A DNA stretch of 64,000 nucleotides from a virus. Taxonomy: Duplodnaviria > Heunggongvirae > Uroviricota > Caudoviricetes. Of the stretch, positions 1 through 50,429 are shown piece after piece; the stretch's first letter is position 1; every line of letters begins with the position of its first letter. Position numbers and translations under genes: made by a program. The stretch is from IMG/VR virus record IMGVR_UViG_651053023_000001, positions 1 to 64,000 of that record; one strand, 5' to 3'. The notes beneath the pieces are model-generated. The model did no database searches and was not told where the DNA came from. It worked only from the letters and a program-made list of their open reading frames with translations.

Positions 1-17
1 ACATTATACGAAGTTAT
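1..17. other. loxP: partial loxP site (last 4 nt of spacer plus one 13-bp arm), cut by window start
   Basis: Window opens ACATTATACGAAGTTAT, matching the 3' 17 nt of the 34-bp loxP core; cre lies immediately downstream. Confidence 0.85.
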
Positions 18-435
18 CTTAAGGGTTATTGAACATGATTAATTTACCTGTAAATCCATACAGTTCAATGCCTTATCAGGTCAAATAGTGATCACTTGAT
101 CATTTGATCAAGGTTGCGCTACGTAAAATCTGCGAAATGTTGGCAGTGTTAGTGCTCCAGATTTCGCGTAGCGCACTTAGCACCACCAATCAATCAGAGG
201 TGAAAACTGGGATATTCAGCTGCTAAAGTGTCCACTCATCTTGAGCTTGAGAAAAACCGTGGTTACTGGCGGGCAAAATGGTTTGATCGTGATAGTTGCC
301 AACTGTCATTATCGCGCGGTGAAGAGAAAATAGAACGCACGCGCGGTCGCTGGCGTTTCTATGACGAGAACCATAAACAGGTAAAGGCAGAGCCAATCCT
401 GTACACTTTACTTAAAACCATTATCTGAGTGTTAA

Positions 436-1467
436 ATGTCCAATTTACTGACCGTACACCAAAATTTGCCTGCATTACCGGTCGATGCAACGAGTGATGA
501 GGTTCGCAAGAACCTGATGGACATGTTCAGGGATCGCCAGGCGTTTTCTGAGCATACCTGGAAAATGCTTCTGTCCGTTTGCCGGTCGTGGGCGGCATGG
601 TGCAAGTTGAATAACCGGAAATGGTTTCCCGCAGAACCTGAAGATGTTCGCGATTATCTTCTATATCTTCAGGCGCGCGGTCTGGCAGTAAAAACTATCC
701 AGCAACATTTGGGCCAGCTAAACATGCTTCATCGTCGGTCCGGGCTGCCACGACCAAGTGACAGCAATGCTGTTTCACTGGTCATGCGGCGGATCCGAAA
801 AGAAAACGTTGATGCCGGTGAACGTGCAAAACAGGCACTGGCGTTCGAACGCACTGATTTCGACCAGGTTCGTTCACTCATGGAAAATAGCGATCGCTGC
901 CAGGATATACGTAATCTGGCATTTCTGGGGATTGCTTATAACACCCTGTTACGTATAGCCGAAATTTCCAGGATCAGGGTTAAAGATATCTCACGTACTG
1001 ACGGTGGGAGAATGTTAATCCATATTGGCAGAACGAAAACGCTGGTTAGCACCGCTGGTGTAGAGAAGGCACTTAGCCTGGGGGTAACTAAACTGGTTGA
1101 GCGATGGATTTCTGTCTCTGGTGTAGCTGATGATCCGAATAACTACCTGTTTTGCCGCGTCAGAAAAAATGGTGTTGCCGCGCCATCATCCACCAGCCAG
1201 CTATCAACTCGCGCCCTGGAAGGGATTTTTGAAGCAACTCACCGATTGATTTACGGGGCAAAAGATGACTCTGGTCAGCGATACCTGGCCTGGTCTGGAC
1301 ATAGTGCCCGTGTCGGTGCCGCGCGAGATATGGCCCGCGCCGGAGTTTCAATACCGGAGATCATGCAAGCTGGTGGCTGGACCAACGTAAACATTGTCAT
1401 GAACTACATTCGTAACCTGGATAGTGAAACGGGGGCAATGGTGCGCCTGCTGGAAGATGGCGATTAG
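436..1467 (+). CDS. cre: Cre tyrosine site-specific recombinase
   Basis: 343-aa ORF MSNLLTVHQNLPALPVDATSDEVRKNLMDMFRDRQAFSEHTWKML... ending ...MVRLLEDGD, recognised as P1 Cre; adjacent to loxP. Confidence 0.97.
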   Translation: MSNLLTVHQNLPALPVDATSDEVRKNLMDMFRDRQAFSEHTWKMLLSVCRSWAAWCKLNNRKWFPAEPEDVRDYLLYLQARGLAVKTIQQHLGQLNMLHRRSGLPRPSDSNAVSLVMRRIRKENVDAGERAKQALAFERTDFDQVRSLMENSDRCQDIRNLAFLGIAYNTLLRIAEISRIRVKDISRTDGGRMLIHIGRTKTLVSTAGVEKALSLGVTKLVERWISVSGVADDPNNYLFCRVRKNGVAAPSSTSQLSTRALEGIFEATHRLIYGAKDDSGQRYLAWSGHSARVGAARDMARAGVSIPEIMQAGGWTNVNIVMNYIRNLDSETGAMVRLLEDGD

Positions 1468-1517
1468 CCATTAACGCGCAAAGGATTGCTCTGATTCTTT
1501 GATATTTATGGTGACAT

Positions 1518-1829
1518 ATGAGAAAGGATTTCAACATCGACGGAAAATATGTAGTGCTGTCTGTAAGCACTAATATTCAGTCGCCAGCCGTCATTGTCAC
1601 TGTAAAGTTGAGCGACAGGATGCCTGATATTGACTCAATATCCGTTGCGTTCCCTGTCAAAAGTATGCGTAGTGCTGAACATTTCGTGATGAATGCCACC
1701 GAGGAAGAAGCACGGCGCGGTTTTGCTAAAGTGATGTCTGAGTTTGGCGAACTCTTGGGTAAGGTTAACAATGTCCTTTCAATCAGTTCAGCAAGGTCCA
1801 AAGCGTTAACAGCTTCCATGATGAAGTAA
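1518..1829 (+). CDS. hypothetical protein in the position of P1 cra
   Basis: 103-aa ORF directly after cre on the same strand; no recognisable motif; an antisense ORF of equal length overlaps it. Confidence 0.35.
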   Translation: MRKDFNIDGKYVVLSVSTNIQSPAVIVTVKLSDRMPDIDSISVAFPVKSMRSAEHFVMNATEEEARRGFAKVMSEFGELLGKVNNVLSISSARSKALTASMMK

Positions 1830-1961
1830 AAAAAAGCCTGGCAAGGAGCCAGGCTGCACAAAAGAGCGGGTTTGTATTCCGCATCCAATCAATCAAGAAG
1901 GAGTATAGCACACTGGTACTGAAGTGAAAAAATATGATTCGCGATAAACAAAATATCTACC

Positions 1962-1985
1962 ATTGCTCTAATTTATTGCTATAAT
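1962..1985 (+). promoter_or_regulatory. C1 operator-like site (ATTGCTCTAATTTATTG) abutting a TATAAT -10 hexamer
   Basis: Matches P1 C1 operator consensus ATTGCTCTAATAAATTT with 2 mismatches; TATAAT at 1980..1985. Confidence 0.5.
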
Positions 1986-2044
1986 TGAGCCGCGGTTTTT
2001 GTCAACTACGAAGACGAGCCATTACTTAACTCCTTGACATCATT

Positions 2045-2068
2045 GGCGGCCGAAAGGCCGCCTTTTTT
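2045..2068 (+). terminator. rho-independent terminator (GGCGGCCGAAAGGCCGCC + T6)
   Basis: Perfect GC-rich hairpin followed by TTTTTT, immediately 3' of the ant-like copy A stop on the other strand. Confidence 0.6.
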
Positions 2069-2070
2069 AA

Positions 2071-3183
2071 TCATTCAGCCGCCACCGGTTTTAACAAGCC
2101 AGCATCGAGCAGTTTACGCGTCAACCACTGCTGGCCTTTACCCGTTAATTGAGGCGTCAGCCGTATCTGATAGCCATCTTCATCATCCAGCACCACTTCT
2201 TTCACTGTGAAATATCCGGCGTTTATGTACTGCTGAAACGGTACATTTTTACGTCCGCCGGACGCAATCAGGATGCCGTTCTCCCGTAACCAGGCAAACA
2301 GCGCATTTTGCTTAAGTCCAACAACCTTTGCAAAATTCCCAATCAGGATCCCCTTAGCCACTGATACCCGGTCGGCAAAATCGACCTTAGGGGCTGCGGC
2401 CACCAGCTGCTGATTTAGCTGGTGGGCTTTCTGTTCCAGAAGTTGCTTTTGTTCAGCCAGCTCGGCAGCCAGGCGCAGAGCTTCGGGAAGCGTCTGAGGG
2501 ATTGCGACCGGTTGCTGTTCTTTTTGCCGGAAGTAGCTGTCTTCCAGTTTTTCAAAGAATGCCCATGCCTGATCGGTTTCGATCATTTTAGCGTGGCGGG
2601 CTGCGCCGCGTTCCGTCCAGAGAGTGAGGTTTCTGGCGTTCTTACCAACAGAGTTACTAAAAGTAACTCTGTTCTTAAATTCTCTTAATTTTGAACCAGT
2701 TAAAAGAAAGTAGTGTTTACCTTCTTCAAAGCGATCGGAGTTGCAAGACAAATTTTTACGAATATTGCCTTCATCGGTTCCGTACCCCTTAGCAAGAGTT
2801 TCGGTTGTTACGACACGTACTCCCTGCCATTCCAGAACGGGAATTTCATCCGGCTGATTTTGAACAACCACCAGCTCCGATTCCTGAACTGAAGGTGCAT
2901 GAATTTTTTCTGATTTAACGTTAGTTGCTTTCATTCTGTGTGCCTCCTTGCGTGCTTCGGCTGCGACGGTTGCGTAATTCAGATGACCCTGTTCGAGCAG
3001 GTATTCGCGGATATCAGACAACAGGATACGGTGAACCGCGTGTTTGTCCTTTCTCCGGTAAAGTTGTTTGGTGATCATGAAGTAGTTGGCAATAACGCCT
3101 GGTATATCCCTGGTGCTGATACAGGCAGTGTGCTGTTCAATTGCCTCGATCATCTCTTCACGGGTGACTAATGACGTTCTCAT
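2071..3183 (-). CDS. antirepressor-like protein, copy A (ORF6N/Bro-N-like N-terminal region plus KilA-C/ANT C-terminal domain)
   Basis: 370 aa; C-terminal ~150 aa (PQTLPEALRLAAELAEQK...KVDFADRVSVA...GKGQQWLTRKLLDAG) shared with the canonical Ant (47170..48213) and with KilA; preceded by an icd-like ORF overlapping by ATGA. Confidence 0.8.
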   Translation of the reverse strand: MRTSLVTREEMIEAIEQHTACISTRDIPGVIANYFMITKQLYRRKDKHAVHRILLSDIREYLLEQGHLNYATVAAEARKEAHRMKATNVKSEKIHAPSVQESELVVVQNQPDEIPVLEWQGVRVVTTETLAKGYGTDEGNIRKNLSCNSDRFEEGKHYFLLTGSKLREFKNRVTFSNSVGKNARNLTLWTERGAARHAKMIETDQAWAFFEKLEDSYFRQKEQQPVAIPQTLPEALRLAAELAEQKQLLEQKAHQLNQQLVAAAPKVDFADRVSVAKGILIGNFAKVVGLKQNALFAWLRENGILIASGGRKNVPFQQYINAGYFTVKEVVLDDEDGYQIRLTPQLTGKGQQWLTRKLLDAGLLKPVAAE

Positions 3184-3401
3184 AGCCCCTCCTGAGCAGA
3201 AGCGTTAACAGGGAGGCACCAGTAACTGAGAGAATTGCGCAAATCGGTAGAAAAGCGGGCAGAGAAAATACAGGGAGCATCCGGAAGCTGAGAACGTGCC
3301 TCATCTTCTGTTGGTGCGATAACGAAGTGATAGTGACGTTTCTGGCAGGAGTAAAAGCGCCAGATAAATTCAGGGCGTGCGCAAGGATTGGCATTAACCA
3401 T
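3180..3401 (-). CDS. Icd-like small protein, copy A
   Basis: 73-aa ORF MVNANPCARPEFIWRFYSC... overlapping the ant start; same arrangement as icd-ant in the canonical immI copy. Confidence 0.7.
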   Translation of the reverse strand: MVNANPCARPEFIWRFYSCQKRHYHFVIAPTEDEARSQLPDAPCIFSARFSTDLRNSLSYWCLPVNASAQEGL

Positions 3402-3444
3402 AGTTACGGCCTCATGTACAGGTTTAACAACCTGCTACCCGCTG

Positions 3445-3525
3445 CTAAACGGGTGGCAGGACGTGACGGGGTTAGCAGACTGGCGTACATGAAACCAGCA
3501 GGCCGAAGCCTCCCCATCACGCCCC
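3445..3525 (-). ncRNA. c4-like antisense RNA, copy A (approximate bounds)
   Basis: Conserved leader block upstream of icd carrying a 6-nt element (ATGTAC in RNA sense) complementary to GTACAT overlapping the icd ribosome-binding site and to a second GTACAT further upstream. Confidence 0.4.
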
Positions 3526-3702
3526 ACCATAATTCGGGCGTAACGCGGTTTTACGGACATAAAAATACCGCAATATCGGAAATCTGCGGTTGTCCGCATG
3601 TACATTCAGGCTGCTAAACCCGGTCGCAGAATTTGCTACGACGTAGGAACTATAAGCCTGAACAACAGGAAGATCAATAGTCTGGCGTCCAATAGTAGTT
3701 TA

Positions 3703-3735
3703 TTTGCTCTAATAAATCAAATTTATTAGAGCAAT
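3703..3735. promoter_or_regulatory. overlapping head-to-head pair of C1 operator sites
   Basis: TTTGCTCTAATAAATCA on top strand and ATTGCTCTAATAAATTT on bottom strand, forming a palindrome. Confidence 0.65.
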
Positions 3736-3994
3736 AACAATCTAGTTGAATGTTTCCTCTCTGAGGTTGCAATGTGCACACTTAGTGCCTTATTTGTATG
3801 CACTAATAAATATATTATTTTTAACAATAAATAATTGACAACTGACAAGTGACTTCAGTCAGAATCATCACACGCCCGGTACGGATGGATCCCTTTTCAA
3901 ATATTCCATGGACGGCACAGTCTGAGTACCGGGCGCTACCTTAAGTTGTATTGCTAAGCCGCCGCTGGTGGCTTTTCTTTTTTGTAGGGGCGCT

Positions 3995-4636
3995 ATGGAT
4001 AAGAAAATATGCGTTGTTTCGATGAGCGTCGGCAAACCGGCGTCAATGACTGCTGCATGGATCAACAACGAGCTGATAATGGCTGAGCGGACCAGCTACC
4101 CTGAACGCCGCCGCGATATGGAACTCCAGCTGCTGCGCGAATTGCGAGAAAAAGAGGAAAAGGGTTTTATCGTGCTGGTGGAAGAGGAAAACAGCTTTAT
4201 TACTGGTCGAGTTGGCCAGCGTGTAAGGTTGCGCGATCCCTTCATGAACGGCAGGCCGGTACTAATTGAGGCCATGCAGATTTATAAGGAGCTGGAACGC
4301 CAGAAAGCAATCAAGTTACCGCGCAAGGAATCCGGCAAATACATCCTCCACCAAAGCATCTTCGATTCCGAACACGACAAAAAAGGCGATGAATTTTTCA
4401 ACATCAACTGGAGCGAAATAACGACAGAGCATGTTCTGACGTTACTATGTTGCTTTGCGACGGAATACAACAACGTTGCCAGCGCAGACTACATCAGGGC
4501 AATGGCTGGAGAAGTTGAGGCACGCCAGGAACCATCGTTACTAAGCCCTCTGATTAACATAATTCGCGGCACACAGAGACTTGCGGAAAAAAGCGTTCCA
4601 CACGGAATCTTAACTGGGAAGGGAAACTATTTTTAA
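3995..4636 (+). CDS. hypothetical protein (core of the inverted-repeat structure)
   Basis: ORF from ATG at 3995 (track ORF starts 3968) with AGGGG 5 nt upstream; no family recognised by eye. Confidence 0.5.
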   Translation: MDKKICVVSMSVGKPASMTAAWINNELIMAERTSYPERRRDMELQLLRELREKEEKGFIVLVEEENSFITGRVGQRVRLRDPFMNGRPVLIEAMQIYKELERQKAIKLPRKESGKYILHQSIFDSEHDKKGDEFFNINWSEITTEHVLTLLCCFATEYNNVASADYIRAMAGEVEARQEPSLLSPLINIIRGTQRLAEKSVPHGILTGKGNYF

Positions 4637-4669
4637 CATCCCCAAATCCTTTTGGGGAACAACTCATTC

Positions 4670-4987
4670 TTACAATAGCTGCCCCATACATTGTCTCCAG
4701 GCACTCCCCTCATTACCGTTATCAAGAAACGTAGAGGTTGCATAAGGAATGCCTCTGATTTGTGTTGATGTGAATGGACCATCAGACGTCGAAGTTGTGC
4801 GCAGTTTTGATGTAAACTCGTAATTTCCACTGATGCCTTTCTCTGCCAGAGCTTTTGATTTTGTGATAACTAAATCTGCACATTTCTCTGCGGCTACATA
4901 TTGCGGGTCTTTTTCAGCTTTTCCGGCACATGCAGTTATCGTTAAAACGATAGCTGCGGCTAACAAATTACCTAGTTTCATCTGCAT
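4670..4987 (-). CDS. small lipoprotein (signal peptide with lipobox LTITAC)
   Basis: 105 aa; N-terminal MQMKLGNLLAAAIVLTITAC is a typical lipoprotein signal peptide with cysteine; two further Cys in the mature part. Confidence 0.55.
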   Translation of the reverse strand: MQMKLGNLLAAAIVLTITACAGKAEKDPQYVAAEKCADLVITKSKALAEKGISGNYEFTSKLRTTSTSDGPFTSTQIRGIPYATSTFLDNGNEGSAWRQCMGQLL

Positions 4988-5086
4988 ACCTTATTAAGTG
5001 CATTAAAAACAGTAGGTTGCCAAGGTTTTAAACAAATTTCAATTCTCCATGACGCTCAACATGAGCAAAAATAACACACAACCCTC

Positions 5087-5120
5087 ATTGCTCTAATAAA
5101 TTTGATTTATTAGAGCAAAT
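5087..5120. promoter_or_regulatory. overlapping head-to-head pair of C1 operator sites
   Basis: ATTGCTCTAATAAATTT (perfect consensus) at 5087..5103 and its partner ATTTGCTCTAATAAATC on the bottom strand at 5104..5120. Confidence 0.65.
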
Positions 5121-5294
5121 ATCCTACCATTGCGCATAGCCCTATTGATCTCCTTACCGTTCAGGCTTATATTCATGCCGTCGTAGCAAATTCTGCGACC
5201 GGGTTTAGCAGCCTGAATACTTACGCGGACAACCGCAGATATCCGATATTGCGGTATTTTCATGTCCGTATAACCACGTTACGCCCGAATTATG

Positions 5295-5375
5295 GTGGGG
5301 CGTGATGGGGAGGCTTCGGCCTGCTGGTTTCGTAAGTGCCAGTCTGCTAACCCCGTCACGTCCTGCCACCTGTTT
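5295..5375 (+). ncRNA. c4-like antisense RNA, copy B (approximate bounds)
   Basis: Same conserved block as copy A but the 6-nt element is GTAAGT, complementary to ACTTAC at the icd ribosome-binding site (5404..5410) and at 5219..5225. Confidence 0.4.
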
Positions 5376-5420
5376 AGCAGCGGGTCGCAGGTTGTTTTAT
5401 CAACTTACGAGGCCGTAACT

Positions 5421-5642
5421 ATGGTTAATGCCAATCCTTGCGCACGCCCTGAATTTATCTGGCGCTTTTACTCCTGCCAAAAACGTCACTATCACTTCGT
5501 TATTGCACCAACAGAAGATGAGGCCCGCTCTCAGCTTCCTGACGCCCCATGTATTTTCTCTGCCCGCTTTTCTACCGATTCGCGCAATTCTCTCAGTTAC
5601 TGGTGCCTCCCTGTTAACGCTTCTGCTCAGGAGGGGCTATGA
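5421..5642 (+). CDS. Icd-like small protein, copy B
   Basis: 73 aa from ATG 5421 (track ORF 5292..5642 carries an unsupported N-terminal extension); one residue differs from copy A; overlaps the ant start. Confidence 0.7.
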   Translation: MVNANPCARPEFIWRFYSCQKRHYHFVIAPTEDEARSQLPDAPCIFSARFSTDSRNSLSYWCLPVNASAQEGL

Positions 5643-6757
5643 GAACGTCATTAGTCACCCGTGAAGAGATGATCGAGGCAATTGAACAGCACACTGCCTG
5701 TATCAGCACCAGGGATATACCAGGCGTTATTGCCAACTACTTCATGATCACCAAACAACTTTACCGGAGAAAGGACAAACACGCGGTTCACCGTATCCTG
5801 TTGTCTGATATCCGCGAATACCTGCTCGAACAGGGTCATCTGAATTACGCAACCGTCGCAGCCGAAGCACGCAAGGAGGCACACAGAATGAAAGCAACTA
5901 ACGTTAAATCAGAAAAAATTCATGCACCTTCAGTTCAGGAATCGGAGCTGGTGGTTGTTCAAAATCAGCCGGATGAAATTCCCGTTCTGGAATGGCAGGG
6001 AGTGCGTGTAGTGACAACCGAGACTCTTGCTAGAGGGTATGGGACAGAAACAATCCGTATTCGCCAAAATCATCATGAGAACAAAGTACGCTTTGTTGAA
6101 GGGAAGCACTTTTTCAAAGTTGAAGGAGAATCATTGCGCGAGTTGAAGCACAGAGTAGCTTTAAACTACTCTGTAAAAATTGCTCGCAATGTTCGCTCAC
6201 TCACCCTCTGGACAGAACGCGGCGCAGCCCGCCACGCTAAAATGCTCGAAACCGATCAGGCATGGGCATTCTTTGAAAAACTGGAAGACAGCTACTTCCG
6301 GCAAAAAGAACAGCAACCGGTTGCAATCCCCCAGACGCTTCCAGAAGCTCTGCGCCTGGCTGCCGAACTGGCTGAACAAAAGCAGCTTCTGGAACAGAAA
6401 GCCCACCAGCTAAATCAGCAGCTGGTGGCCGCCTCTCCTAAAGTCGATTTTGCCGACCGGGTATCAGTAGCTAAAGGGATCCTGATTGGGAATTTTGCAA
6501 AGGTTGTTGGTCTTAAGCAAAACGCGCTGTTTGCCTGGTTACGGGAGAACGGCATCCTGATAGCGTCCGGTGGACGTAAAAATGTGCCGTTCCAGCAGTA
6601 CATCAATGCGGGATATTTCACGGTGAAAGAAGTGGTGCTGGATGATGAAGATGGCTACCAGATACGGTTGACGCCTCAATTAACGGGTAAAGGCCAGCAG
6701 TGGTTGACGCGTAAACTGCTCGATGCTGGCTTGTTAAAACCGGTGGCGGCTGAATAA
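5639..6757 (+). CDS. antirepressor-like protein, copy B
   Basis: 372 aa; identical to copy A over the first ~131 aa and the C-terminal ANT/KilA-C domain, with a divergent patch between. Confidence 0.8.
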   Translation: MRTSLVTREEMIEAIEQHTACISTRDIPGVIANYFMITKQLYRRKDKHAVHRILLSDIREYLLEQGHLNYATVAAEARKEAHRMKATNVKSEKIHAPSVQESELVVVQNQPDEIPVLEWQGVRVVTTETLARGYGTETIRIRQNHHENKVRFVEGKHFFKVEGESLRELKHRVALNYSVKIARNVRSLTLWTERGAARHAKMLETDQAWAFFEKLEDSYFRQKEQQPVAIPQTLPEALRLAAELAEQKQLLEQKAHQLNQQLVAASPKVDFADRVSVAKGILIGNFAKVVGLKQNALFAWLRENGILIASGGRKNVPFQQYINAGYFTVKEVVLDDEDGYQIRLTPQLTGKGQQWLTRKLLDAGLLKPVAAE

Positions 6758-6764
6758 TGGAAGA

Positions 6765-6790
6765 ATGCCCGGTTGATGCCGGGCATGATT
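6765..6790 (+). terminator. hairpin (ATGCCCGG-ttgat-GCCGGGCAT) after ant copy B; weak terminator
   Basis: Perfect 8-bp stem but poor U-tract. Confidence 0.35.
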
Positions 6791-6904
6791 AAATGTCTCT
6801 TCAGCACATTACCGAAGTTCAATCTTCAACCAAGAAGTGGACTCGCATACGATTATCGCAATAAAATACTTGAAGTTTTATAAACTGTGAGTATCATTAC
6901 CCAT

Positions 6905-7360
6905 ATGAAAACATCCTATTTAACTATATTGGCTTTCCATATTCGCGATTTTCGCGAGAAGCATGGTGTTACTCAATCAGACATTGCATCTGGCCTTGGG
7001 ATAACAAGTGCCGGCTGGGGAAAAATTGAAAATGGTAAGTCCTCTCTCTCTGTAGAGAATATGATGAAATTCTGTAAAATCATTAATATTGATGCAACCA
7101 TACTTCTTGATATTTCCACAAAATCGGCAAAAAACTTAATCAAATGTGGATGGAGTGTATCTTATTCTCCTGTTGAGGATGATAATTTAATAGACGGAAA
7201 AAATATATTTGCTAAAACACATGGAATGAATAACGTTATGAGGAAATTTATAGACGGGAAACTTGGAAGTGTTTTAGACAAAGAATTTGATGATATTATT
7301 ATGAAATATGCAACATTTTATATGGTTGTAGCTAAAAATCTAAGAGATGACTTGATTTAA
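6905..7360 (+). CDS. XRE-family helix-turn-helix protein with C-terminal domain of unknown function
   Basis: HTH signature GVTQSDIASGLGITSAGWGKIENGKSSLSVENMMKF; AT-rich codon usage; start taken at ATG 6905 (track ORF begins at GTG 6887). Confidence 0.6.
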   Translation: MKTSYLTILAFHIRDFREKHGVTQSDIASGLGITSAGWGKIENGKSSLSVENMMKFCKIINIDATILLDISTKSAKNLIKCGWSVSYSPVEDDNLIDGKNIFAKTHGMNNVMRKFIDGKLGSVLDKEFDDIIMKYATFYMVVAKNLRDDLI

Positions 7361-7375
7361 AAATGGAGTGTACAT

Positions 7376-8128
7376 ATGGCATACAGAAAAGACAGCGATC
7401 TTGAATTCCTAGCTAAATGTAGCGACCGTGATCTTGATGATTTAGTTAACCTATTGATTTATGATAACGATGGCAAAAAAAGATGGACTGAAGAGTTATC
7501 TAACAATCGACAATATAAGGAATTTGCACCAAGACATAGCGTATATTGGAGAGAAATTGCTGCTGAAATTCAATGTTATGGTGGAAATACCATAGCAACT
7601 CTCTTGCGTGGTGGTAAAGGGGTCTGCTACAGAGAAATTCTCATTGATGTATGCAATAAGCTAAAGGTTAATTTCAATGCCAAGAGCCGAATAGAGGTTA
7701 TTGAACAAAATCTTCTATTAAAAATTCTCAGCGACTCTCTAGATAACATGTCATCCGAAGATATAAAAGTTTTTGCCATGGAACTTGGATTGGATGAAGT
7801 TACAAGATTTACTCCTGAGGCAGTTCTATCTGCCTTCCAATATATTTTCAGGGCCGGCGGTTTCAGATCTTATCAGGTAACTCTTAAATTTGCGAATCTT
7901 TTACTAAAAATTTTAATTGGACGCGGTTTAACACTCGCAGGTAATCAAATACTCGTAAAAGCATTATCTATTTTAACAGGCCCAATTGGTTGGGCTATAA
8001 CAGCCGCATGGACCATTGTAGATGTGGGAGGAACTGCTTATCGAGTAACAATTCCTGCTGTTATTCAAGTTGCTGTACTAAGGGCGAAAGTCAATAATAA
8101 TATTAAAGACAGCGATATTACCTTGTGA
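7376..8128 (+). CDS. hypothetical 250-aa protein with C-terminal hydrophobic segment; candidate effector of a two-gene accessory cassette
   Basis: ATG with GGAG 7 nt upstream, 15 bp after the HTH gene; hydrophobic stretch LTGPIGWAITAAWTIVDVGG near the C-terminus; AT-rich. Confidence 0.65.
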   Translation: MAYRKDSDLEFLAKCSDRDLDDLVNLLIYDNDGKKRWTEELSNNRQYKEFAPRHSVYWREIAAEIQCYGGNTIATLLRGGKGVCYREILIDVCNKLKVNFNAKSRIEVIEQNLLLKILSDSLDNMSSEDIKVFAMELGLDEVTRFTPEAVLSAFQYIFRAGGFRSYQVTLKFANLLLKILIGRGLTLAGNQILVKALSILTGPIGWAITAAWTIVDVGGTAYRVTIPAVIQVAVLRAKVNNNIKDSDITL

Positions 8129-8149
8129 TATTATAACTCCATCCATCAA

Positions 8150-8180
8150 GGAAGAGGTGCTAATCCTCTTCCTGTAATTC
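8150..8180. terminator. bidirectional terminator hairpin (GGAAGAGG-tgctaat-CCTCTTCC) between convergent genes
   Basis: Perfect 8-bp stem between the + strand cassette and the - strand lxc-like gene. Confidence 0.5.
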
Positions 8181-8203
8181 TATGATTCCTAAATGTTAAT
8201 GAG

Positions 8204-8452
8204 TCAATCAGCATTCAGAAGCAATGCGTTATCTATGATGATCTGCTCCCATTCTTCGAATGCCCGGTCGCGGACGCCCTGGGGAACGCTGTTAGTTTTG
8301 AAATCGACGACCGTACGCCATTTTCCGTCCGGACGGTACATGCGCAGAGCTTTACTTCCCCCTTCCCTGCGCACCTCAACGTTATGCTTGTCAGCAAACT
8401 CTTGTAATGCTCGTAGCGTCCCATGCTTTACTGTGTAGTATCGCTTTTTCAA
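8204..8452 (-). CDS. lxc: Lxc/Bof-like C1 co-repressor modulator (by size and synteny)
   Basis: 82-aa ORF at the end of the darB-ulx transcription unit; size and position match P1 lxc as I recall it. Confidence 0.5.
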   Translation of the reverse strand: MKKRYYTVKHGTLRALQEFADKHNVEVRREGGSKALRMYRPDGKWRTVVDFKTNSVPQGVRDRAFEEWEQIIIDNALLLNAD

Positions 8453-8889
8453 GTTTTCTCTCCAGCCTGTGCCAAGGCTTCAACTTCCAAATCGTAAGAC
8501 TCAAACTCATAGTCCTGGTCGTCAACCTCTTCAGGCACTGGCAGTAAATGCCAGGCTGAGTATATCTGACCATTATCAAAACGCTCCTGGCTGTAGAGCG
8601 TCGCAGCTATGAGCGTCAGCGCCGGGCGGTCATAACGGTAAATTTTGCGAACGTCACGGTCAACGAGACGACCGAAATTACCATAACCGCGCTCCAGTAA
8701 TAATTTTTTAATTTCCGGCCAGTATGGACCATAGCTGCGGTACAGGCGGGGATTTTTCAGTAATCGCCCGCGTAGCCCTGACAGGAAGAAATCAACGTAT
8801 TCGTCTTCTGTCTTTCCTAACAACGCCGTACGCAGTACCGCCTCAAGATATGTTTTATTCGGTTTTATTGTATCAGATAGTGTGGCCAT
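8449..8889 (-). CDS. ulx: Ulx-like protein (upstream of lxc)
   Basis: 146-aa ORF between darB and lxc, overlapping lxc start by 4 nt. Confidence 0.5.
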   Translation of the reverse strand: MATLSDTIKPNKTYLEAVLRTALLGKTEDEYVDFFLSGLRGRLLKNPRLYRSYGPYWPEIKKLLLERGYGNFGRLVDRDVRKIYRYDRPALTLIAATLYSQERFDNGQIYSAWHLLPVPEEVDDQDYEFESYDLEVEALAQAGEKT

Positions 8890-8922
8890 ATTATGCGACG
8901 CCCGGCGAACCGGGCGCTCCTG

Positions 8923-11900
8923 TTATGCGTATTGTTGGATGACGGCCAGAACGTCCGCCACGTTGTGTTTTGTCTCGATAATCCACCAGTTACCCGGGAA
9001 ATCGCTGTTCTTCGCCTTCGCTGGCAGCCAGCGAGCGCCGAATTTCGCCTTGATTGCGTCTTTCGCACGGAAAAGAACGCCTTTCATGCCTGAGGCTTCC
9101 TGAAGCCCAAATACCTCGCCAGCGGCGAATTTTGGTGCGTACATCATCTTCAGGTCGGCGGTGGATACGCGATAATTCAGACCAAGAGACTGAGCTATGC
9201 TGGTGGCATCACCCTGTATTGATGATAACTCTTCTTGTTTCTCGTTTCTGGCGGCAATCTCTTCCTCCGTGATGTTGCCAAGGGCCAGGTTTATCCGATC
9301 AGCGTCGGCCTGTTTCTCTTCATCGGTGCGCCCGGCAAGAACCGTGTTAATTCTCTGCAATATCTCCACATGATTCTTGCGCATGCTGAGCAATTCCGGC
9401 GTAACCTCGTTAAGATCCACCAGCCCAAGGATGGCAAGGTCGGAAAACATTGATACCAGGTTGTAGGTCATGCGATAGCTGAGTTGACCATAGGCTGATG
9501 GCAACTTCACCGCATCCATTTGATAGGCATCCATAAATTTAGAGCCGTCGTTTACGACATCCGCTATTGCAGGTGTGATTTTCCCTGTGGTGGCGGCCTC
9601 CCTGATTGCTGTTACCCACGATTGAGTCAGCGCGGCGACTGCATGATTCAGATTGGCTTCCCGTTCTGCTGCGATGCGCGCGCTTGCTGCGTCCATTGCC
9701 TGCTTGATCTCGGCTTTATTGCTGTAAATGCCAATGGTGCCAAACTGTGCTGTGGTGATCTCATAATCTGACGCCCGGAACTCATGGGTACCGAAAATAG
9801 CATTGGTGACCTCAAGTTCAGAGTCCCCGTTACGAGTAGCCCCCTGGCTTGTTTTCTCCGGCATTTTGGCGATCGAATCCGCTATTTTCTCCTGAAGTGC
9901 TTCAGGGGATAGCGTATCTCCGTATGACGCGATTACATCGCCATAATTGGAGCCAAACAGTTCAGTCAGGAATACTTCTGCCAAACGGACCTGGCGGTTA
10001 TTCCCTTCCGACATCATACCAAGCACCCATTTTGCAATTGACGACTTCAGCGCGCCGTCACGGCGATCCGGGTAAACCGCATGCTTCAGTGGGTCCGTAT
10101 AGGTACCAACAAAATCAATGCTATAGCCTGACTCTGTAGTCTGAACGCCGTATGAGTCAGTGATTTTGATCATGCCGCGCTGCTGGAAACGGTAGAAATC
10201 GTCACAGGAAATGATGTCGTTAATCCCGGCGATGGAGACGCCACCACTGATTTTCTGCATAACAGCATCTTCATCGGGAGTTACATCCACCTGTTTATCC
10301 AGCGTCTTCACATCCCAGTTACCCGATTTGGTGCCTTTGAAGGTAAAGATGATCTCCACGTCTGCGCGCTGGCTGTCGAAGTCCAGCGACTTAATGCGAA
10401 CGATATCACCGGCACAATCGTAGTATTGGCCTACACGCCATGAGCGATCGCCGATAACAAGGAACTCATTCGCATGGTTAACCATGTCAGGATCAATATC
10501 CAGAATGCCTTTATTTATTGCATCCTCCACCAGCGGGCGCAGGCGTTTGATATCCGTCGCGGCCTTCTGAGTACGGTTCAATAATTTCTCATAGCGTGAG
10601 ATGGCCTGAGAGATATTAGCCTTGCGCTGAATGGCGCTTTTCAACGACGCGCGATACTGTGCTAACAACATACGGTCTGTGTGATGGACACTCCCCCAGC
10701 GGGCCTTCCAGTCTGCGTTATCCGCTGCCTTGGCCATTGCCGCCTGTTTGAATTTAGCTACCTCGGCGGTGGTCTTTTCAAGTTCCGCTTTGCTTCGCTC
10801 TAATTCAGCGGTAAGTACCTCCACATCCTCGCCAGCTGCGTGCTGCGCCTTGATGTAGTTCTGAAGGTCGATAGTAGCCTGTTCTTTCTGGCGAGCGCGT
10901 TTCGCAGCTTTCGCCTTATCCATTTGAACCTGCATCATTGCCAGACGTTCGCCGTCATCCTTCGCGGTATACATCTGCATTTCGATCATGTCATTGGCGT
11001 CGGCGTTCTCCATTTCTGACTTATCTGAACGGAGGATATCGGAGATCCAGCCTGCTTTACGCTTCAGCGTCTTCAGTCGGTATTCATCGAAAGACCCCTT
11101 GCCGCAGTAGTAGTGAACGCGAACGCTTGCACGGTTGGAGCCAACTCGTGCACCGCGACCGTTACGTTGTGCGATACTGGCTGGTGTCCACGGCAACGTC
11201 AGGTGGTGGATATCCGTCGTTCCTCGATGCAGGTTGATACCCACCTCTGCCTTTTTGTTGCAGATGATGATCGGAGTCCGGCCCTCCTGGAAGTCGGCTG
11301 CAATCTTTTCCAGACCGCCCAACGACATTTCATTTTGCTGCGCGATATAGGCGTCATACAGAGCCATTTGCTCGTTGTATTTCGCTATCTGTGCATCTGT
11401 TGGTTCATCCGGTAGCTCTTTCGGCGGTTTAACCGCTTTCAGTTTCTTACCGGTTTTACCTGCCTCGGCAACCGTCTGAGCATTCAGGATCCCCACCTTT
11501 GAAGGTTCAAGGTTTAGAGCATTGCAGATAATGCGCTTGAGCTTCTGGTGCTGCGTTTTTTCATCGGTGAAGATGATTTGCTTACCTTCCGGGAAAAACT
11601 CCTTCAGCGTGGCGATCAGCTTCGCGTATTTGGGCGTAACGGGGTGAGTTACGGTCTGTTCGTCAATGCCAAACCTGGCCAGTCGCTTATTCACTTCCTG
11701 CTCGAACGCTTCCGGAACCTGCAACTGAATAAACTCGCCCTTATCTATCAGGGAGTATTGCGATTGCTGCGTGATTGAATCATCACTGTCGTCGTATTCG
11801 CTGGTGGCTTGTTTAGGCAAACTGTCCGCCAGCTGCTGCACCGCATCGGCGTACTCCGGCAGGAAACGATAGGTGATCCGGCGATAGTACAGGTCCATGT

Positions 11901-14900
11901 CAGTACATACGCGGTCCATATCCCTGATTATTGAGAAGATCGGACGGGCTTTCTCGTGCTCAATCACGCCGTCTTCATTGACCGAGGTCGTTACGCCATT
12001 GTTGGCTTTGGCCGCCGCTTCCGCCTGCTGACGCAATTCTTCATACGCCGCCAGTTGTTCTTCAGTAAGTGGTGCATCCTGCTGGTGTTCGTCCAGCTCC
12101 GGGATCTCCACGGTATCCTTAACGTCTTCCGCCGTTTTAAGCGTTACCCAGCGATGGAATATACCGCGCAGCGCATCAAGGTTTTCAAAGCCCACCAGCG
12201 CCATTTTTTCTTCAACTTCACCGCTGATTTTCTGTACCGTTTCCAGCCTGGTCTTGCCGAAGAATTTAACGAAGTCATCAGGACCGTAGATCCCCATGTT
12301 CTGCCAGTATTCCTTCGGCAGAACATGAGAAAGCATGTTGTATGCATCGATCGGGGTGTTAACGACTGGCGTTGCAGTCAGGAGAACCGGCCCGCGCCCG
12401 CCATTCTTTTTCATCAGGTACGCGTTTTTAATTGCCATATCTCGCGCCGATTGCGCCACCGCGCTGGTGGGCAGATAGGCCAGTTGTGACGCTTCGCGAC
12501 CATTTTTATAGCTATTGCGGTAGTTGTGACCTTCGTCAGCGATCACACTATCGAAGCCCATATCCTCAAAGTACGGATACTTCTCTGCTTTTTCGGTGCC
12601 GGTATCTGAATACTCCGACAATACCCGGCGACGCGCGGCCTCTTTGCGGTGGGAGTCGGAGTCCATTGCGCTGGCTACGCGTCCGGCGGCAACGAAGTCA
12701 TAAAGCATATCCTGTGCATGCTCATCTACGGTGTCATCACGTAGCGGAATGCGGGCGTATTGTTCTTTGGTAAACACGACTGCACGGTAATTTGAGTGCG
12801 GGATCGCGTTCATCCGCGCCGTGATAGTGGCTTCATCTGCCAGCTTAAGAGCATCGCGCATAACTGGAGTGCCATCAGTACCAAGAACAGGTTTACCGTT
12901 CTCATCGAGCACCGGCACCTGGCGAATCTGATCGCCATCCATCAGCACATCAAGACCGACGAACAGGTAGTTACTGAATGCCTCTTCACTCAGAAACTCT
13001 TTTGCTTCGTAATACCAGTTTTCCAGCACTGATTTAGGCACTACATACGCAGTACGGGTGGAACGACCGTTCTCATAGTTGAACGCCTCAAGCGCCAGCG
13101 CGGTCGTGGTTTTACCCAGCCCGGTGCCGAAGCCCAGGATGCCGCGCCCATCTTCGGACAGTCGGCGCACCTCGCTATTCTGGTAATCAAATGGCTGGCG
13201 CTTACCGCTTAATCCCTTCAACCCAAGCGGATCGCCAGAGTGTTCATACGGGATATTGCTATTGAACACATCGTTGTATTTGGCAACCAGCTCATCGTAG
13301 CGATCGTGCGTCTTGATCCACTTATTGAACTGGTCCTCAAGCAGTGCCATCTGCTCGCGGTAGCCGTTAGCCGTCGCGCTATCTTTGCCACCGATACGCG
13401 CACCATTGAGATACTTTTCCAGCTGTGCCGGGAACCCGGTCGCGTTTTCACCTGATTTACGGTCCCACTCGTAGCGGATCTCGCCTGTTTCTTTATCCTT
13501 GCGCTGGACGACACCGTATCGGTGCCCGACGAACAGACCATCACCACCGTGATAGGTGTCAGAAACCATTTCGTCGCCTTCAAGCTGCACTGACTGCACA
13601 TAGCGCAGATCCGGATAGCCGTTTTCCTGCAAAAATTCCAGAATGACGGAACGGTCGAACCAACGGCTATTGAGCTTAAACCGGATATTCTCTGCTGGCG
13701 TCTTGATGCGCTTCTCTTCGATCGCTGCCAGCTGATTAAGGACGTTGTTCTTTACTGGACCGTCGGGGAGCGTGGCGAGGAATTCCTGTTTTGGAGCCAC
13801 TATCTCGTTAATGTCGCCGCTGGTGGCGCGGGCGAACGGAACAATCCCGCCATACGGTGAAACCGCAATACCAGGGGTGCTGGCCAATAAATTAAGCAAC
13901 TCTTCATCACTGGCTGGCAGTTCGCCGGTAAACGCAAGGCGGAAATCATCGAGCTGGATTGGATCGCGAGTGAGATCACTGTAGAGATAACGCAGGGTGT
14001 CCTGATAGCTGGTGGAGTCATAACTTGCGCTGGAATCATGCGTAACCAGCTTTCCTGTCAGCTCGTCAGAAATAGTGCCATCCAGCTTAATTGCACCACG
14101 GAAAGCAAACCAGGCGCGCGCACCGCTCCCCGATAATTTCGCTATCGGGCCGCGACCGGGGTTACCAAAACGGTCAATCTCTGCCTGCAAACGGGATACC
14201 AGAGAAAGGCGCTGCTGTTCGATTTGTTCAGCACTATGCCCGGCGGCCTTCATGTCCTGATATTCAATTAACATCCGGCCAATCATCGCCCCGCGATACA
14301 AGCGTTCACGGTATTTTTCAGGCTGGCTGTTAATCCAGTCCACCAGCTGCACCATATCGTCGCTGATTGATGTGGTGTACTTATCGCGGACATTTGCCAT
14401 CTGGGTAAATGTCATGCCGAGACGGCCTTCTGTTGTAGTCAGGTTACGCTGAAGAGCCTCCCAGCTATCCGCGCCATAACTGGCAGCATCGATCTTAAGT
14501 TCCTTCCCGGCATCAGCTTCAATCCAGCGACCACCAGCATATTTTTGCCATACGCCATTAATCAGGCGCATTTCCCCTTCATCAACAACATCTGCGGTCG
14601 GTGACGGTTCAGCCATATCGAGCAAAGACCAGTCGATACGACTTTCGAAACGATGAATCAGCTTCGCTTTAAGAGCCTGGTTATCAATCTGCCCGTCGGC
14701 ACGAACCTCAATACGCCCCTGGAAGCCCTTTTCCTGGGTACCATGAACAAACCGGCGACCGTCCTTTTCAAACCACTTGCCAGAAATAAACGTTGGCCAA
14801 AGCACATTTGCCGATTCAAGAGTGCTTTCATCCACCAGGGGGATTTTCTCAGCCATCTCCGCCGGATGTTTGCGCATCAGCACCACATCAACGACTGTAC

Positions 14901-15690
14901 TGGTCCCGTTTGCGTCAAAAGTACCGGTAGGCAAGCGGTGAGCGCCAAGAAATTCAGCTTTACGGGATAGGCGCAGGCGTAACCGCTTCATGTTTGAACC
15001 TGAAACAATGGACGGCGGCACAATCACGCACATGAATCCGCCTGGCTTTATCTTGTCCAGCATGCGGAGCATGAAGTAAGAACCCATGTCCGTTTCTTCT
15101 GCGTAAGGCTTATCGATGTTGCGTGTGTTATCACGACCACCGAACGGAACGTTACCCACAACATGGTCGAATGAATCGTTAGGCGTGCTTACAGCCAATT
15201 GTTCGAACGGGGAAATCTGTACGCTGTCTTCCGGGTGTAACAGCTGGTTTATACGACCGGAAACACTGCTGATCTCAGTCGCGGTCATCACCGTACCAAC
15301 CGGTTTTGTCTCATTAAAAACGCCGGTTCCCGCCGATGGTTCCAGAGTGTTACCTACGTCCGCGCCGTAGAGCTTCATGATCTCCCAGACGCCTTCAGCG
15401 ATCGGCTTTGGTGTGTAATATTCGGAGACGGACCCGCCAATGCCGCCTTCACCAGTGTACCCGGCCAGGATCTGGCGCTGTTCATCTGTCAGTGTCGCGC
15501 CGTCCACCAGCGAATTAAGCAAATCTATCGCCTTCTGATTCGCCTCCCGGCGCAGTCGGTCATAGCTTTTGCCTTCCACCTTTTCCACGCCGTATTTAAT
15601 CGGCGCTCGGTGAGATGTTATTGCCCTAATGTATTTCAATATTTCGCTGACACTTGAACAGCGAAACACCCCCATAGATAGCTTGTTCAT
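8923..15690 (-). CDS. darB: DarB antirestriction protein (N6-adenine methyltransferase-like plus helicase domains)
   Basis: 2255 aa (P1 DarB length); methyltransferase-like VGNVPFGG motif near the N-terminus; helicase Walker A GFGTGLGKTTTALAL and DEGH box. Confidence 0.9.
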   Translation of the reverse strand: MNKLSMGVFRCSSVSEILKYIRAITSHRAPIKYGVEKVEGKSYDRLRREANQKAIDLLNSLVDGATLTDEQRQILAGYTGEGGIGGSVSEYYTPKPIAEGVWEIMKLYGADVGNTLEPSAGTGVFNETKPVGTVMTATEISSVSGRINQLLHPEDSVQISPFEQLAVSTPNDSFDHVVGNVPFGGRDNTRNIDKPYAEETDMGSYFMLRMLDKIKPGGFMCVIVPPSIVSGSNMKRLRLRLSRKAEFLGAHRLPTGTFDANGTSTVVDVVLMRKHPAEMAEKIPLVDESTLESANVLWPTFISGKWFEKDGRRFVHGTQEKGFQGRIEVRADGQIDNQALKAKLIHRFESRIDWSLLDMAEPSPTADVVDEGEMRLINGVWQKYAGGRWIEADAGKELKIDAASYGADSWEALQRNLTTTEGRLGMTFTQMANVRDKYTTSISDDMVQLVDWINSQPEKYRERLYRGAMIGRMLIEYQDMKAAGHSAEQIEQQRLSLVSRLQAEIDRFGNPGRGPIAKLSGSGARAWFAFRGAIKLDGTISDELTGKLVTHDSSASYDSTSYQDTLRYLYSDLTRDPIQLDDFRLAFTGELPASDEELLNLLASTPGIAVSPYGGIVPFARATSGDINEIVAPKQEFLATLPDGPVKNNVLNQLAAIEEKRIKTPAENIRFKLNSRWFDRSVILEFLQENGYPDLRYVQSVQLEGDEMVSDTYHGGDGLFVGHRYGVVQRKDKETGEIRYEWDRKSGENATGFPAQLEKYLNGARIGGKDSATANGYREQMALLEDQFNKWIKTHDRYDELVAKYNDVFNSNIPYEHSGDPLGLKGLSGKRQPFDYQNSEVRRLSEDGRGILGFGTGLGKTTTALALEAFNYENGRSTRTAYVVPKSVLENWYYEAKEFLSEEAFSNYLFVGLDVLMDGDQIRQVPVLDENGKPVLGTDGTPVMRDALKLADEATITARMNAIPHSNYRAVVFTKEQYARIPLRDDTVDEHAQDMLYDFVAAGRVASAMDSDSHRKEAARRRVLSEYSDTGTEKAEKYPYFEDMGFDSVIADEGHNYRNSYKNGREASQLAYLPTSAVAQSARDMAIKNAYLMKKNGGRGPVLLTATPVVNTPIDAYNMLSHVLPKEYWQNMGIYGPDDFVKFFGKTRLETVQKISGEVEEKMALVGFENLDALRGIFHRWVTLKTAEDVKDTVEIPELDEHQQDAPLTEEQLAAYEELRQQAEAAAKANNGVTTSVNEDGVIEHEKARPIFSIIRDMDRVCTDMDLYYRRITYRFLPEYADAVQQLADSLPKQATSEYDDSDDSITQQSQYSLIDKGEFIQLQVPEAFEQEVNKRLARFGIDEQTVTHPVTPKYAKLIATLKEFFPEGKQIIFTDEKTQHQKLKRIICNALNLEPSKVGILNAQTVAEAGKTGKKLKAVKPPKELPDEPTDAQIAKYNEQMALYDAYIAQQNEMSLGGLEKIAADFQEGRTPIIICNKKAEVGINLHRGTTDIHHLTLPWTPASIAQRNGRGARVGSNRASVRVHYYCGKGSFDEYRLKTLKRKAGWISDILRSDKSEMENADANDMIEMQMYTAKDDGERLAMMQVQMDKAKAAKRARQKEQATIDLQNYIKAQHAAGEDVEVLTAELERSKAELEKTTAEVAKFKQAAMAKAADNADWKARWGSVHHTDRMLLAQYRASLKSAIQRKANISQAISRYEKLLNRTQKAATDIKRLRPLVEDAINKGILDIDPDMVNHANEFLVIGDRSWRVGQYYDCAGDIVRIKSLDFDSQRADVEIIFTFKGTKSGNWDVKTLDKQVDVTPDEDAVMQKISGGVSIAGINDIISCDDFYRFQQRGMIKITDSYGVQTTESGYSIDFVGTYTDPLKHAVYPDRRDGALKSSIAKWVLGMMSEGNNRQVRLAEVFLTELFGSNYGDVIASYGDTLSPEALQEKIADSIAKMPEKTSQGATRNGDSELEVTNAIFGTHEFRASDYEITTAQFGTIGIYSNKAEIKQAMDAASARIAAEREANLNHAVAALTQSWVTAIREAATTGKITPAIADVVNDGSKFMDAYQMDAVKLPSAYGQLSYRMTYNLVSMFSDLAILGLVDLNEVTPELLSMRKNHVEILQRINTVLAGRTDEEKQADADRINLALGNITEEEIAARNEKQEELSSIQGDATSIAQSLGLNYRVSTADLKMMYAPKFAAGEVFGLQEASGMKGVLFRAKDAIKAKFGARWLPAKAKNSDFPGNWWIIETKHNVADVLAVIQQYA

Positions 15691-46339: not shown

Positions 46340-46620
46340 CCCAGAAAAACAAAAACCGGCGAGAAGTTACCACGAGAACGGAAAGTAAACAAGAATACTC
46401 CCATTGACTTATATCAATTAATCAACTTTTTATAAGCTATCCCTAACTTATTGTGTATAGCTGAAAAGTCAGAGACAAGTTCACCATCTGCATTATTTCT
46501 TAAGTTAATAGTTTATTGCTAACTTAATTTATGCATCGACTATTGATATCCATCTTAAAGTTACAATATCCCTCTGCATTATTTTTCATCACAAATAATA
46601 TATCTATTGCACGACACTAA

Positions 46621-46637
46621 CCTGCTCTAATAAATTT
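46621..46637 (+). promoter_or_regulatory. C1 operator-like site upstream of the canonical immI module
   Basis: CCTGCTCTAATAAATTT, 2 mismatches to consensus. Confidence 0.5.
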
Positions 46638-46824
46638 GTATTTTTAAGTCGCGAATGCTATCTTTTCGCATCATATTGACCTTTTAATCGTTCAGGCTTA
46701 TAGTTTCGCCGTCGTAGCAAATTCTGCGACCGGGTTTAGCAGCCTGAATGATTGTGCGGACAGCCGCAGATATCCGATATTGCGGTATTTTTGTGTCCGT
46801 AAAACCGCGTTACGCCCAAATTAT

Positions 46825-46905: not shown

Positions 46906-46951
46906 TAGCAGCGGGTAGCAGGTTGTTAAACCTGATTGTGAGGCCGTAACT

Positions 46952-50349: not shown

Positions 50350-50429
50350 TACAATCGTTGCGGGTGCTTGAGGCTATCAGCTTCAGGCATTACCCGAAAA
50401 GCAGATAGAAGAAAGCCCCAGATAACATT

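Follow-up and report, generated by a model that had tools for sequence, protein, structure and literature searches.

The mat gene and a predicted accessory lipoprotein gene between two extra immI modules of a P1-like phage-plasmid

The window analyzed here is the whole 64-kb stretch comprising positions 1 to 64,000 of the IMG/VR virus record IMGVR_UViG_651053023_000001, and it represents a P1-like phage-plasmid. The genes cre (436-1467) and c8 (1518-1829) keep their P1 coordinates, and darB occupies 8923-15690. Matches to the C1 operator consensus ATTGCTCTAATAAATTT with three or fewer mismatches number 9 across the 64 kb, against 0.23 expected. Perfect 17-mers stand at 3719-3735 (minus strand) and 5087-5103 (plus strand), and each is overlapped by a partner with three mismatches (3703-3719, plus; 5103-5119, minus), the two pairs forming perfect palindromes of 14+14 nt each. 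The palindromes are the inner ends of an inverted repeat of about 1.7 kb, with blocks at 2039-2628/6200-6789, 2752-3680/5142-6070, and 3690-3735/5087-5132, all of 93% identity. Because the palindromes are the inner tips of this repeat, the unique core is 3736-5086. Within it two open reading frames (ORFs) converge, one of 213 amino acids (aa) at 3995-4636 on the plus strand and one of 105 aa at 4670-4987 on the minus strand. Between their stop codons lies a hairpin, CCCCAAA-TCCT-TTTGGGG (4640-4657, assigned to neither strand), that is kept in a copy of the locus on the F plasmid. Since neither strand has a U-run, the hairpin would at best be a weak bidirectional terminator.

An earlier note on this DNA, made from the letters alone, had noticed a unique core flanked by palindromic pairs of near-consensus C1 operators with divergent immI-like modules outside them. 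Both features are indeed present, the modules being c4-icd-ant units on either side that read away from the 213-aa ORF. The same note had proposed that the core is a lysogeny-expressed exclusion or defense cargo under prophage repressor control. In our reading, to which we assign a probability of roughly 85%, the core is the P1 mat backbone gene with its native control region, together with an orphan accessory lipoprotein gene, flanked by two independently inserted immI modules. The segment is not a repressor-controlled defense cassette.

mat and its control region

Window positions 3798-4637 aligned with P1 positions 2629-3469 at 96.1% DNA identity in a megablast search against phages, from the operator Omat through the stop codon. 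The encoded protein matched phrog_1837 at 3e-112 over residues 1-213, and it matched 70 protein clusters at 95 to 100% amino acid identity, the majority carrying the name "maturation control protein." The P1 gene (P1_gp006 in NC_005856; Lehnherr et al. 2001, J Bacteriol 183:4105) has the same operator, the same architecture of -35, -22, and -10 promoter elements, and the same position after c8 and ref. On this homology the 213-aa ORF at 3995-4636 (plus strand) is P1 Mat, whose gene controls particle maturation. The earlier note had called it hypothetical and had named, as the outcome that would speak against its own proposal, a match to a known P1 core gene with an unrelated function; Mat is such a gene. 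The surroundings are different in the two genomes. P1 has ref before mat, whereas the window has an inverted c4-icd-ant module in its place, and P1 has res and mod after mat, whereas the window has the lipoprotein gene, a second immI module, a helix-turn-helix (HTH) gene, and a JukA-like gene. mat itself was present in every P1-like locus and was co-oriented with cre in every fetched locus containing both, and it is a conserved backbone gene rather than cargo.

The P1 record gives Mat a length of 250 aa, compared with 213 aa here. The longer frame hinges on one extra G, GGGGG instead of GGGG, just before the conserved ATG, and the corresponding frame of the window is closed upstream of the ATG by a TAA. 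Across 96 leader sequences of related loci (31 of them distinct), the G-run is GGG, GGGG, or GGGGG. The upstream TAA and a run that varies from 3 to 5 therefore indicate that the extension is not conserved coding sequence and that the conserved ORF is the 213-aa one, which is also the length called by RefSeq. The P1 reference annotation of Mat is thus probably 37 residues too long. The disputed extension corresponds to 3883-3994 in the window and to 2716-2826 in P1.

A late morphogenetic role for mat is supported by what follows the gene in relatives. Where Mat has diverged to 40 to 75% identity, homologues of P1 baseplate and tail genes come co-directionally after mat. Their PHROGs names are, in order, baseplate wedge subunit, tail protein, tail protein, and baseplate protein, and a 405-aa protein among them is about 73% identical to P1 gp25. 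These genes have no homologue inside the 64-kb window and were identified through a phage collection and PHROGs.

The control region of mat lies entirely within the core. Omat (3797-3814, plus strand), a monovalent C1 operator through which P1 controls mat, is annotated in P1 at 2628-2645, an offset of 1169, and its sequence, ATGCACTAATAAATATA, is identical in P1, in the window, and in pMTY1886. It is a third C1 operator, located inside the core, and was missed by the three-mismatch scan because it has four mismatches to the consensus. Downstream is the sigma-70 promoter Pmat (3835-3865, plus strand; P1 annotation 2666-2696), with a -35 element TTGACA and a -10 element CAGAAT. It is overlapped by the Lpa-dependent late promoter LPmat (3847-3865, plus strand; P1 2678-2696), with its -22 inverted repeat TGACTTCAGTCA. 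LPmat is the single exact site of its kind in the window and is conserved in relatives. All three elements are identical or nearly identical to the annotated copies of P1. Neither Omat nor the promoter had been noticed in the earlier note. In work by Lehnherr et al., the -35/-10 pair is reported to be an active sigma-70 promoter that is repressed by C1 and turned into a late promoter by Lpa.

The proposed order of the unit is thus Omat, Pmat/LPmat, a structured leader that would end in an intrinsic terminator, and the 213-aa ORF. In a lysogen, C1 bound at Omat would shut mat off. After induction or infection, mat would be transcribed both early and late, Pmat acting as a sigma-70 promoter that Lpa would convert to the late promoter LPmat, and its product would serve the maturation of particles. 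In relatives at a greater distance, mat would be the first gene of a baseplate/tail operon. The earlier suggestion of expression in the lysogen runs in the opposite direction, as C1 operators imply repression in that state.

The 123 nt between the -10 element of LPmat (3860-3865) and the ATG of mat form a conserved structured leader (3872-3994, plus strand). Its 5' stem pairs 3873-3882 with 3926-3935 over 10 bp and encloses an invariant GATGG...GGACGGCAC. At 3956-3985, a GC-rich hairpin followed by a U-run resembles an intrinsic terminator and stands about 10 nt ahead of the ribosome-binding site and ATG of mat. The leader folds with a minimum free energy of -47.9 kcal/mol (z score, -2.2), and a terminator scan also finds the hairpin. 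In a 12-sequence alignment, 96.4% of cells were paired, against 32 to 44% when the partners were slid. Compensatory changes occur in three pairs of the 5' stem and in 4 of 20 pairs overall; they include pairs 11-77 and 12-76, with exchanges between UA and CG and between GC and AU. This covariation is suggestive support for an RNA structure, drawn from an alignment of low diversity. A scan with Rfam in E-value mode over window positions 1 to 9000 gave nothing at 3740-3995 with an E value of 1 or less, and the leader is, as its alignment and folding indicate, an un-catalogued conserved structured element. A covariance model built for it scored 125.8 bits at the mat site and at best 17.8 bits elsewhere in the window, where no second copy was found.

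The hairpin could alternatively be the end of the transcription unit of the upstream gene, ref in P1, and not part of a mat leader. In P1 the distance from ref to the hairpin downstream of it is indeed about 150 nt, and terminators commonly separate transcription units. However, it is positioned downstream of Pmat and LPmat, not upstream, and the 5' stem begins only a few nucleotides from the expected transcription start site. The element moves with mat in E. coli, Salmonella/Citrobacter-type, and Pantoea elements that carry differing, unrelated genes upstream. Its terminator is still recognizable where Mat identity has fallen to 40%, and among the relatives farthest removed, conservation of the leader visibly exceeds that of Mat itself (57 to 61% amino acid identity). 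We therefore consider a terminator of the upstream unit to be a somewhat unlikely explanation. The place of a terminator between a late promoter and an essential late gene suggests a small RNA combined with read-through, attenuation, or dependence on an antiterminator.

The flanking immI modules

Directly outside each palindrome, Rfam identifies a C4 antisense RNA with its a1/b1 targets, reading outward. The left palindrome (3703-3735, no strand assigned) is the bivalent C1 operator of an extra immI module on the minus strand and lies outside the mat unit; the a1/b1 targets are at 3603-3655, c4 at 3449-3534, icd at 3180-3401, and ant at 2071-3183. Its counterpart on the right (5087-5119, likewise without strand) heads a module on the plus strand with targets at 5167-5219, c4 at 5288-5373, icd at 5421-5642, and ant at 5639-6757. 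The icd-like ORFs fall in NCBIfam phage_ICD_like, and the antirepressors have ORF6N and KilAC domains. A third, canonical immI lies at 46.6 to 46.9 kb with its operator at 46621-46637. When the three modules are aligned, both palindromes occupy the canonical immI operator position; therefore, the operators belong to the flanking modules and not to the core. A sigma-70 scan found no promoter-like sites beside the palindromes reading into the core.

The three modules differ from one another in several respects. The C4 loops of the copies at 3400-3740 (minus), 5082-5422 (plus), and 46616-46960 (plus) are all different, the loop/target pairs being CAUGUAC/GUACAUG on the left, CGUAAGU/ACUUACG on the right, and CACAAUC/GAUUGUG in the canonical module, and both target sites of each C4 carry changes that match its loop. 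One genome would thus apparently combine three antisense immunity specificities that are orthogonal to each other. Operators are bivalent and palindromic in the two extra modules and single in the canonical one. The extra Ant proteins (2071-3183, minus; 5639-6757, plus) are nearly identical at their ends and sharply different in a central ORF6N/BRO-type domain at about residues 130 to 190, and it is because of this difference that the inverted repeat is split into the 2039-2628 and 2752-3680 blocks. On the left, the P1 Oref operator (1962-1978) and the sequence up to about 2040 have been kept even though ref was replaced by the inverted immI, and Oref now faces the 3' end of the left ant.

How the two modules came to bracket mat can be read from gene order in P1-like loci, which were typed around mat in 80 loci from IMG/VR and a few from plasmids and genomes. 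The order cre-c8-ref-mat-lxc was found in 48 typed loci, and the P1-like order with res after mat was found in 9. At least 7 have the left module in the place of ref with nothing on the right, and in 3 ref is retained and mat is followed on the right by lipoprotein-immI(-HTH-DUF3944). Among the typed loci, both modules are present only in the window and in pMTY1886. In 5,426 complete E. coli genomes, window positions 3600-5300 gave 848 matches, of which 13 covered at least 80% and 4 ran from end to end. Since left only, right only, both, and neither are all seen, the bracketing is a by-product of two independent insertions at hot spots.

Both sites are known for variability. The variable region in the res/mod slot has been published as RD-1, and in pSvP1 it carries icd and ant homologues (PMC6906374). 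The junction between c8 and mat near Oref has also been described as an insertion site, and Tn1721 likewise inserts between ref and mat. The proposed sequence of events is that one extra c4-icd-ant module would have entered the ref slot, left of mat, and another, independently, the res/mod slot (RD-1) to its right. The modules being oppositely oriented and reading away from mat, their bivalent operators would face the core and give the impression of a bracket. A close described counterpart is pSvP1 (NZ_MN510446.1), which is 98.3% identical over 77% of window positions 1500-9000, in matches spanning query positions 1-7501. It has the right-hand module of the window, including the lipoprotein gene, which is not singled out in its description (Venturini et al. 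2019, PMC6906374). On the left, pSvP1 keeps ref, annotated as "Ref family protein," where the window has the inverted immI.

Other cargo is found at the same two sites. Between ref and mat, Salmonella-type elements carry HigB-HTH toxin-antitoxin pairs and a Sequestin-domain protein, and another relative carries a Tad2-like (anti-Thoeris) protein. This varied cargo confirms the ref-mat junction as a hot spot for accessory genes. On the right of the window, an HTH_3 protein (6887-7360, plus) is followed by a DUF3944 protein (7376-8128, plus) that matches PADLOC JukA at 3e-66, and 6887-8128 is probably Juk-like defense cargo in the res/mod slot, between the right immI and lxc. Farther away, a sok antitoxin RNA (Rfam RF01794, 109.7 bits) at 50362-50536 (plus) points to a hok/sok-type addiction module on this P1-like element.

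The gene orders also bear on the proposal that mat and the lipoprotein gene are a two-gene exclusion or defense cassette, expressed in the lysogen under control of the flanking operators. Near-consensus operators do flank the segment, and the lipoprotein gene is accessory, being found in the res/mod slot together with the right module. The description as cargo holds for the lipoprotein gene; it fails for mat, which belongs to the backbone, serves morphogenesis, and has an operator and a late promoter of its own. The flanking operators head outward-reading c4-icd-ant modules, each of which occurs singly in other elements. Moreover, C1 binding represses rather than activates, and neither Mat nor the lipoprotein matched any family of the PADLOC-DB 2.0 defense models (0 at an E value of 0.01 or less for each). 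We give such a cassette almost no credence.

A further alternative is that the core is an invertible switch, in which the 1.7-kb immI repeats recombine and flip mat together with the lipoprotein gene. Inverted repeats of that length at 93% identity would be a sufficient substrate for RecA-dependent inversion. We constructed a synthetic flipped query, consisting of c8, the left repeat, and the reversed core, and a passage from c8 through a flipped core was found in 0 of 72,556 plasmids, a test whose effective sample is small, as very few elements have both repeats. The best matches to the flipped query, at 82 to 84% coverage, were the right repeat and core read from the other strand, whereas three records matched the natural order over positions 1 to 3582. 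No site for a site-specific recombinase was seen, and the constant co-orientation of mat with cre also speaks against flipping. Inversion of the core thus appears very improbable.

The lipoprotein gene

The gene at 4670-4987 (minus strand) encodes 105 aa if translation begins at ATG 4987 and 103 aa if it begins at ATG 4981. The second ATG is the more likely start, because it has AAGG 7 nt upstream and most database copies use it. The gene and its convergence with mat are as the earlier note described them, and only the 105-aa length is to be revised. MKLGNLLAAAIVLTITA is the N-terminus up to the lipobox Cys, and MQMKLGNLLAAAIVLTITA is the beginning of the small protein up to CAGK. The signal consists of an n-region that contains K, a hydrophobic h-region, and a lipobox I-T-A-C with Ala at +2, which agrees with the pattern [LVI][ASTVI][GAS]C as judged by rule. 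The protein would be exported by Sec, lipidated at Cys18 (numbered from ATG 4981), and, given the Ala at +2, sorted to the outer membrane with one stabilizing disulfide.

The family is phrog_16031, which has no annotated function. A word-indexed search of 5.8 billion proteins returned no more than 11 clusters, and every one with a name comes from E. coli; an exhaustive HMMER search of 1.84 billion representatives gave 23 homologues at an E value of 1e-3 or less, mostly 100 to 130 aa long and 27 to 61% identical. All 21 members that were aligned fall in phrog_16031. Most of the 21 keep the lipobox Cys, and the family has two further conserved Cys residues, likely forming a disulfide, and a C-terminal motif, IPYxxSTxLDNGxPGSAWRxCM. 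The ratio of nonsynonymous to synonymous substitution rates between P1-type and F-type copies is 0.24 to 0.41, so the gene is functional and under purifying selection. No Pfam or NCBIfam family was matched, a tblastn search of 50,697 isolate phage genomes gave no match, and the family profile found nothing relevant among all PDB chain sequences at an E value of 10 or less. An AlphaFold2 model from an 8-sequence alignment was poor (mean predicted local distance difference test [pLDDT] score, 39.5). The homologues gave scattered matches at the level of the signal peptide, among them EexN (0.015) and TraV (4e-5, one member), which were rejected as lipobox noise.

The genomic contexts of the family are varied. 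Among P1-like elements, the gene is confined to those with the right-hand module, in the res/mod slot. The family member of Salmonella F-like plasmids lies 52 to 55 nt after traT and is co-directional with traG, an ORF in the traS position, and traT. It is there within the tra operon, and a reversed ccdAB pair lies between it and traD. Two tailed prophages have a homologue adjoining the terminase genes, and in one of the two, from Providencia, it lies between the lysis cassette and terminase, much where lambda carries bor. Further homologues, from Pectobacterium and from a metagenome, have filamentous (Zot/secretin) prophages as neighbors, and a Dickeya homologue is at a chromosomal site in a housekeeping neighborhood.

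The F plasmid is of particular use for the history and regulation of the gene. Between IS3/finO and srnB, F128 (NZ_CP014271.1; locus positions 4909-5427) has a counterpart of window positions 4548-5065 that is 89.6% identical. The fragment consists of the last approximately 90 nt of mat, now dead, the hairpin, the lipoprotein gene, and 85 bp upstream, and the protein of the F ORF (WP_000802277.1) is 88% identical to that of the window. The remnant of mat indicates that F captured the fragment from a P1-like element. In several hundred mostly conjugative IncF-type plasmids, only a remnant of about 100 bp from the upstream end is left. Unlike the window copy, the F ORF has no adjacent C1 operators; the upstream region co-inherited in F (4982-5066, minus strand) ends 20 bp short of them. 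Because the homology covers these 85 bp and stops before the operators, the lipoprotein gene most likely has its own C1-independent promoter within 4982-5066. The gene would thus be part of the right-hand insertion and, transcribed from its own 85 bp independently of C1, would act as a moron-type envelope factor.

By analogy, an exclusion or envelope role is possible for the protein. Cor of HK022, phi80, and N15 and Llp of T5 are likewise small accessory lipoproteins with a lipobox and outer membrane sorting, a likeness in kind only, and the family is not known to be linked to FhuA. Lambda Bor/Iss and F TraT are also lipoproteins in moron slots of mobile elements. A Cor-type identity by homology, as the earlier note had in mind, finds no footing, because HK022 Cor aligned with the family profile in hhalign at 12.4% probability over 16 columns of the signal peptide, and phrog_16031 is unannotated. 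Lambda Bor gave 17.8% over 14 signal peptide columns. For T5 Llp there was no relevant match among PDB chains at an E value of 10 or less, the presence of Llp among those chains not having been checked. With respect to TraT (PF05818), no Pfam family was found in the window lipoprotein at an E value of 0.1 or less and no TraT domain was found in any of the 21 homologues at an E value of 1 or less, and the link of the family to TraT is only the adjacency to traT in the Salmonella plasmids.

One specific form of this idea is that the lipoprotein alone is a Cor/Llp/TraT-like exclusion factor, made constitutively from the prophage-plasmid, that masks or inactivates an envelope component on which incoming phages or conjugative DNA depend. 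A small predicted outer membrane lipoprotein with a disulfide, maintained under purifying selection and found in moron slots after traT, by terminase genes, by filamentous prophages, and in the P1 res/mod slot, is in keeping with such a function. The hhalign comparisons extend over the signal peptide only, there is no TraT or other Pfam domain and no PDB relative, structure prediction failed, and the Dickeya homologue sits among chromosomal housekeeping genes. We regard an exclusion factor of this type as unlikely. The same distribution would fit a different benefit to the host at the envelope, unrelated to phage defense, such as Bor/Iss-like serum or complement resistance, protection from periplasmic toxins or lysins, or adhesion and biofilm formation. 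The conserved C-terminal motif is suggestive of a specific binding surface, and the classical F plasmid has kept the gene. However, searches of Pfam, NCBIfam, and PDB related the protein to neither Bor/Iss nor lysozyme inhibitors nor immunity proteins, and the proposal draws purely on analogy. A host-benefit role of this kind is a tentative possibility that we would not yet favor.

Weight of the evidence and significance

Several observations weigh against parts of our reading of the core as P1 mat with its native control and an orphan lipoprotein gene. mat is listed as essential in a passage of PMC10695390 that cites Lehnherr et al., and CRISPR interference knock-down of P1 mat reduces the efficiency of plating only to 0.28; the essentiality of mat is therefore debated. 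With regard to the biochemical role of Mat, no Pfam or NCBIfam family was matched, a profile search against PDB gave only chance-level matches to NusG (E value, 0.27), and an AlphaFold2 model from a 13-sequence alignment was poor (pLDDT, 48.4). The simple model of the unit also does not account for a terminator placed between the late promoter and the gene that it serves. For the lipoprotein gene, neither a sigma-70 scan nor manual reading of 4982-5086 revealed a convincing promoter, and the operator pair 106 to 138 bp upstream of its ATG may control the gene.

The double bracket itself is rare. Public plasmid records already contain arrangements of a similar kind, which have been described in part. 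The fragment of mat and the lipoprotein gene in F is tangible evidence that genes have passed from a phage-plasmid into a conjugative plasmid. That phrog_16031 recurs as an accessory gene family in mobile elements of very different kinds makes it a candidate for an exclusion or envelope screen, and the family could represent outer membrane lipoproteins shared by F-like plasmids, P1-like phage-plasmids, and tailed and filamentous prophages. The structured leader and its terminator bear on the control of late transcription in P1 and on whether P1 has an antiterminator. That at least one of two stronger statements is true, namely, that phrog_16031 is a new family of exclusion lipoproteins or that the mat leader, with a conserved part of about 115 nt, is a new cis-regulatory or small RNA, we consider doubtful at present. 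On the second of these, expression of a late morphogenesis gene might depend on whether transcription terminates in the leader or reads through it, and the P1 antiterminator that was postulated long ago might have the leader as its target.

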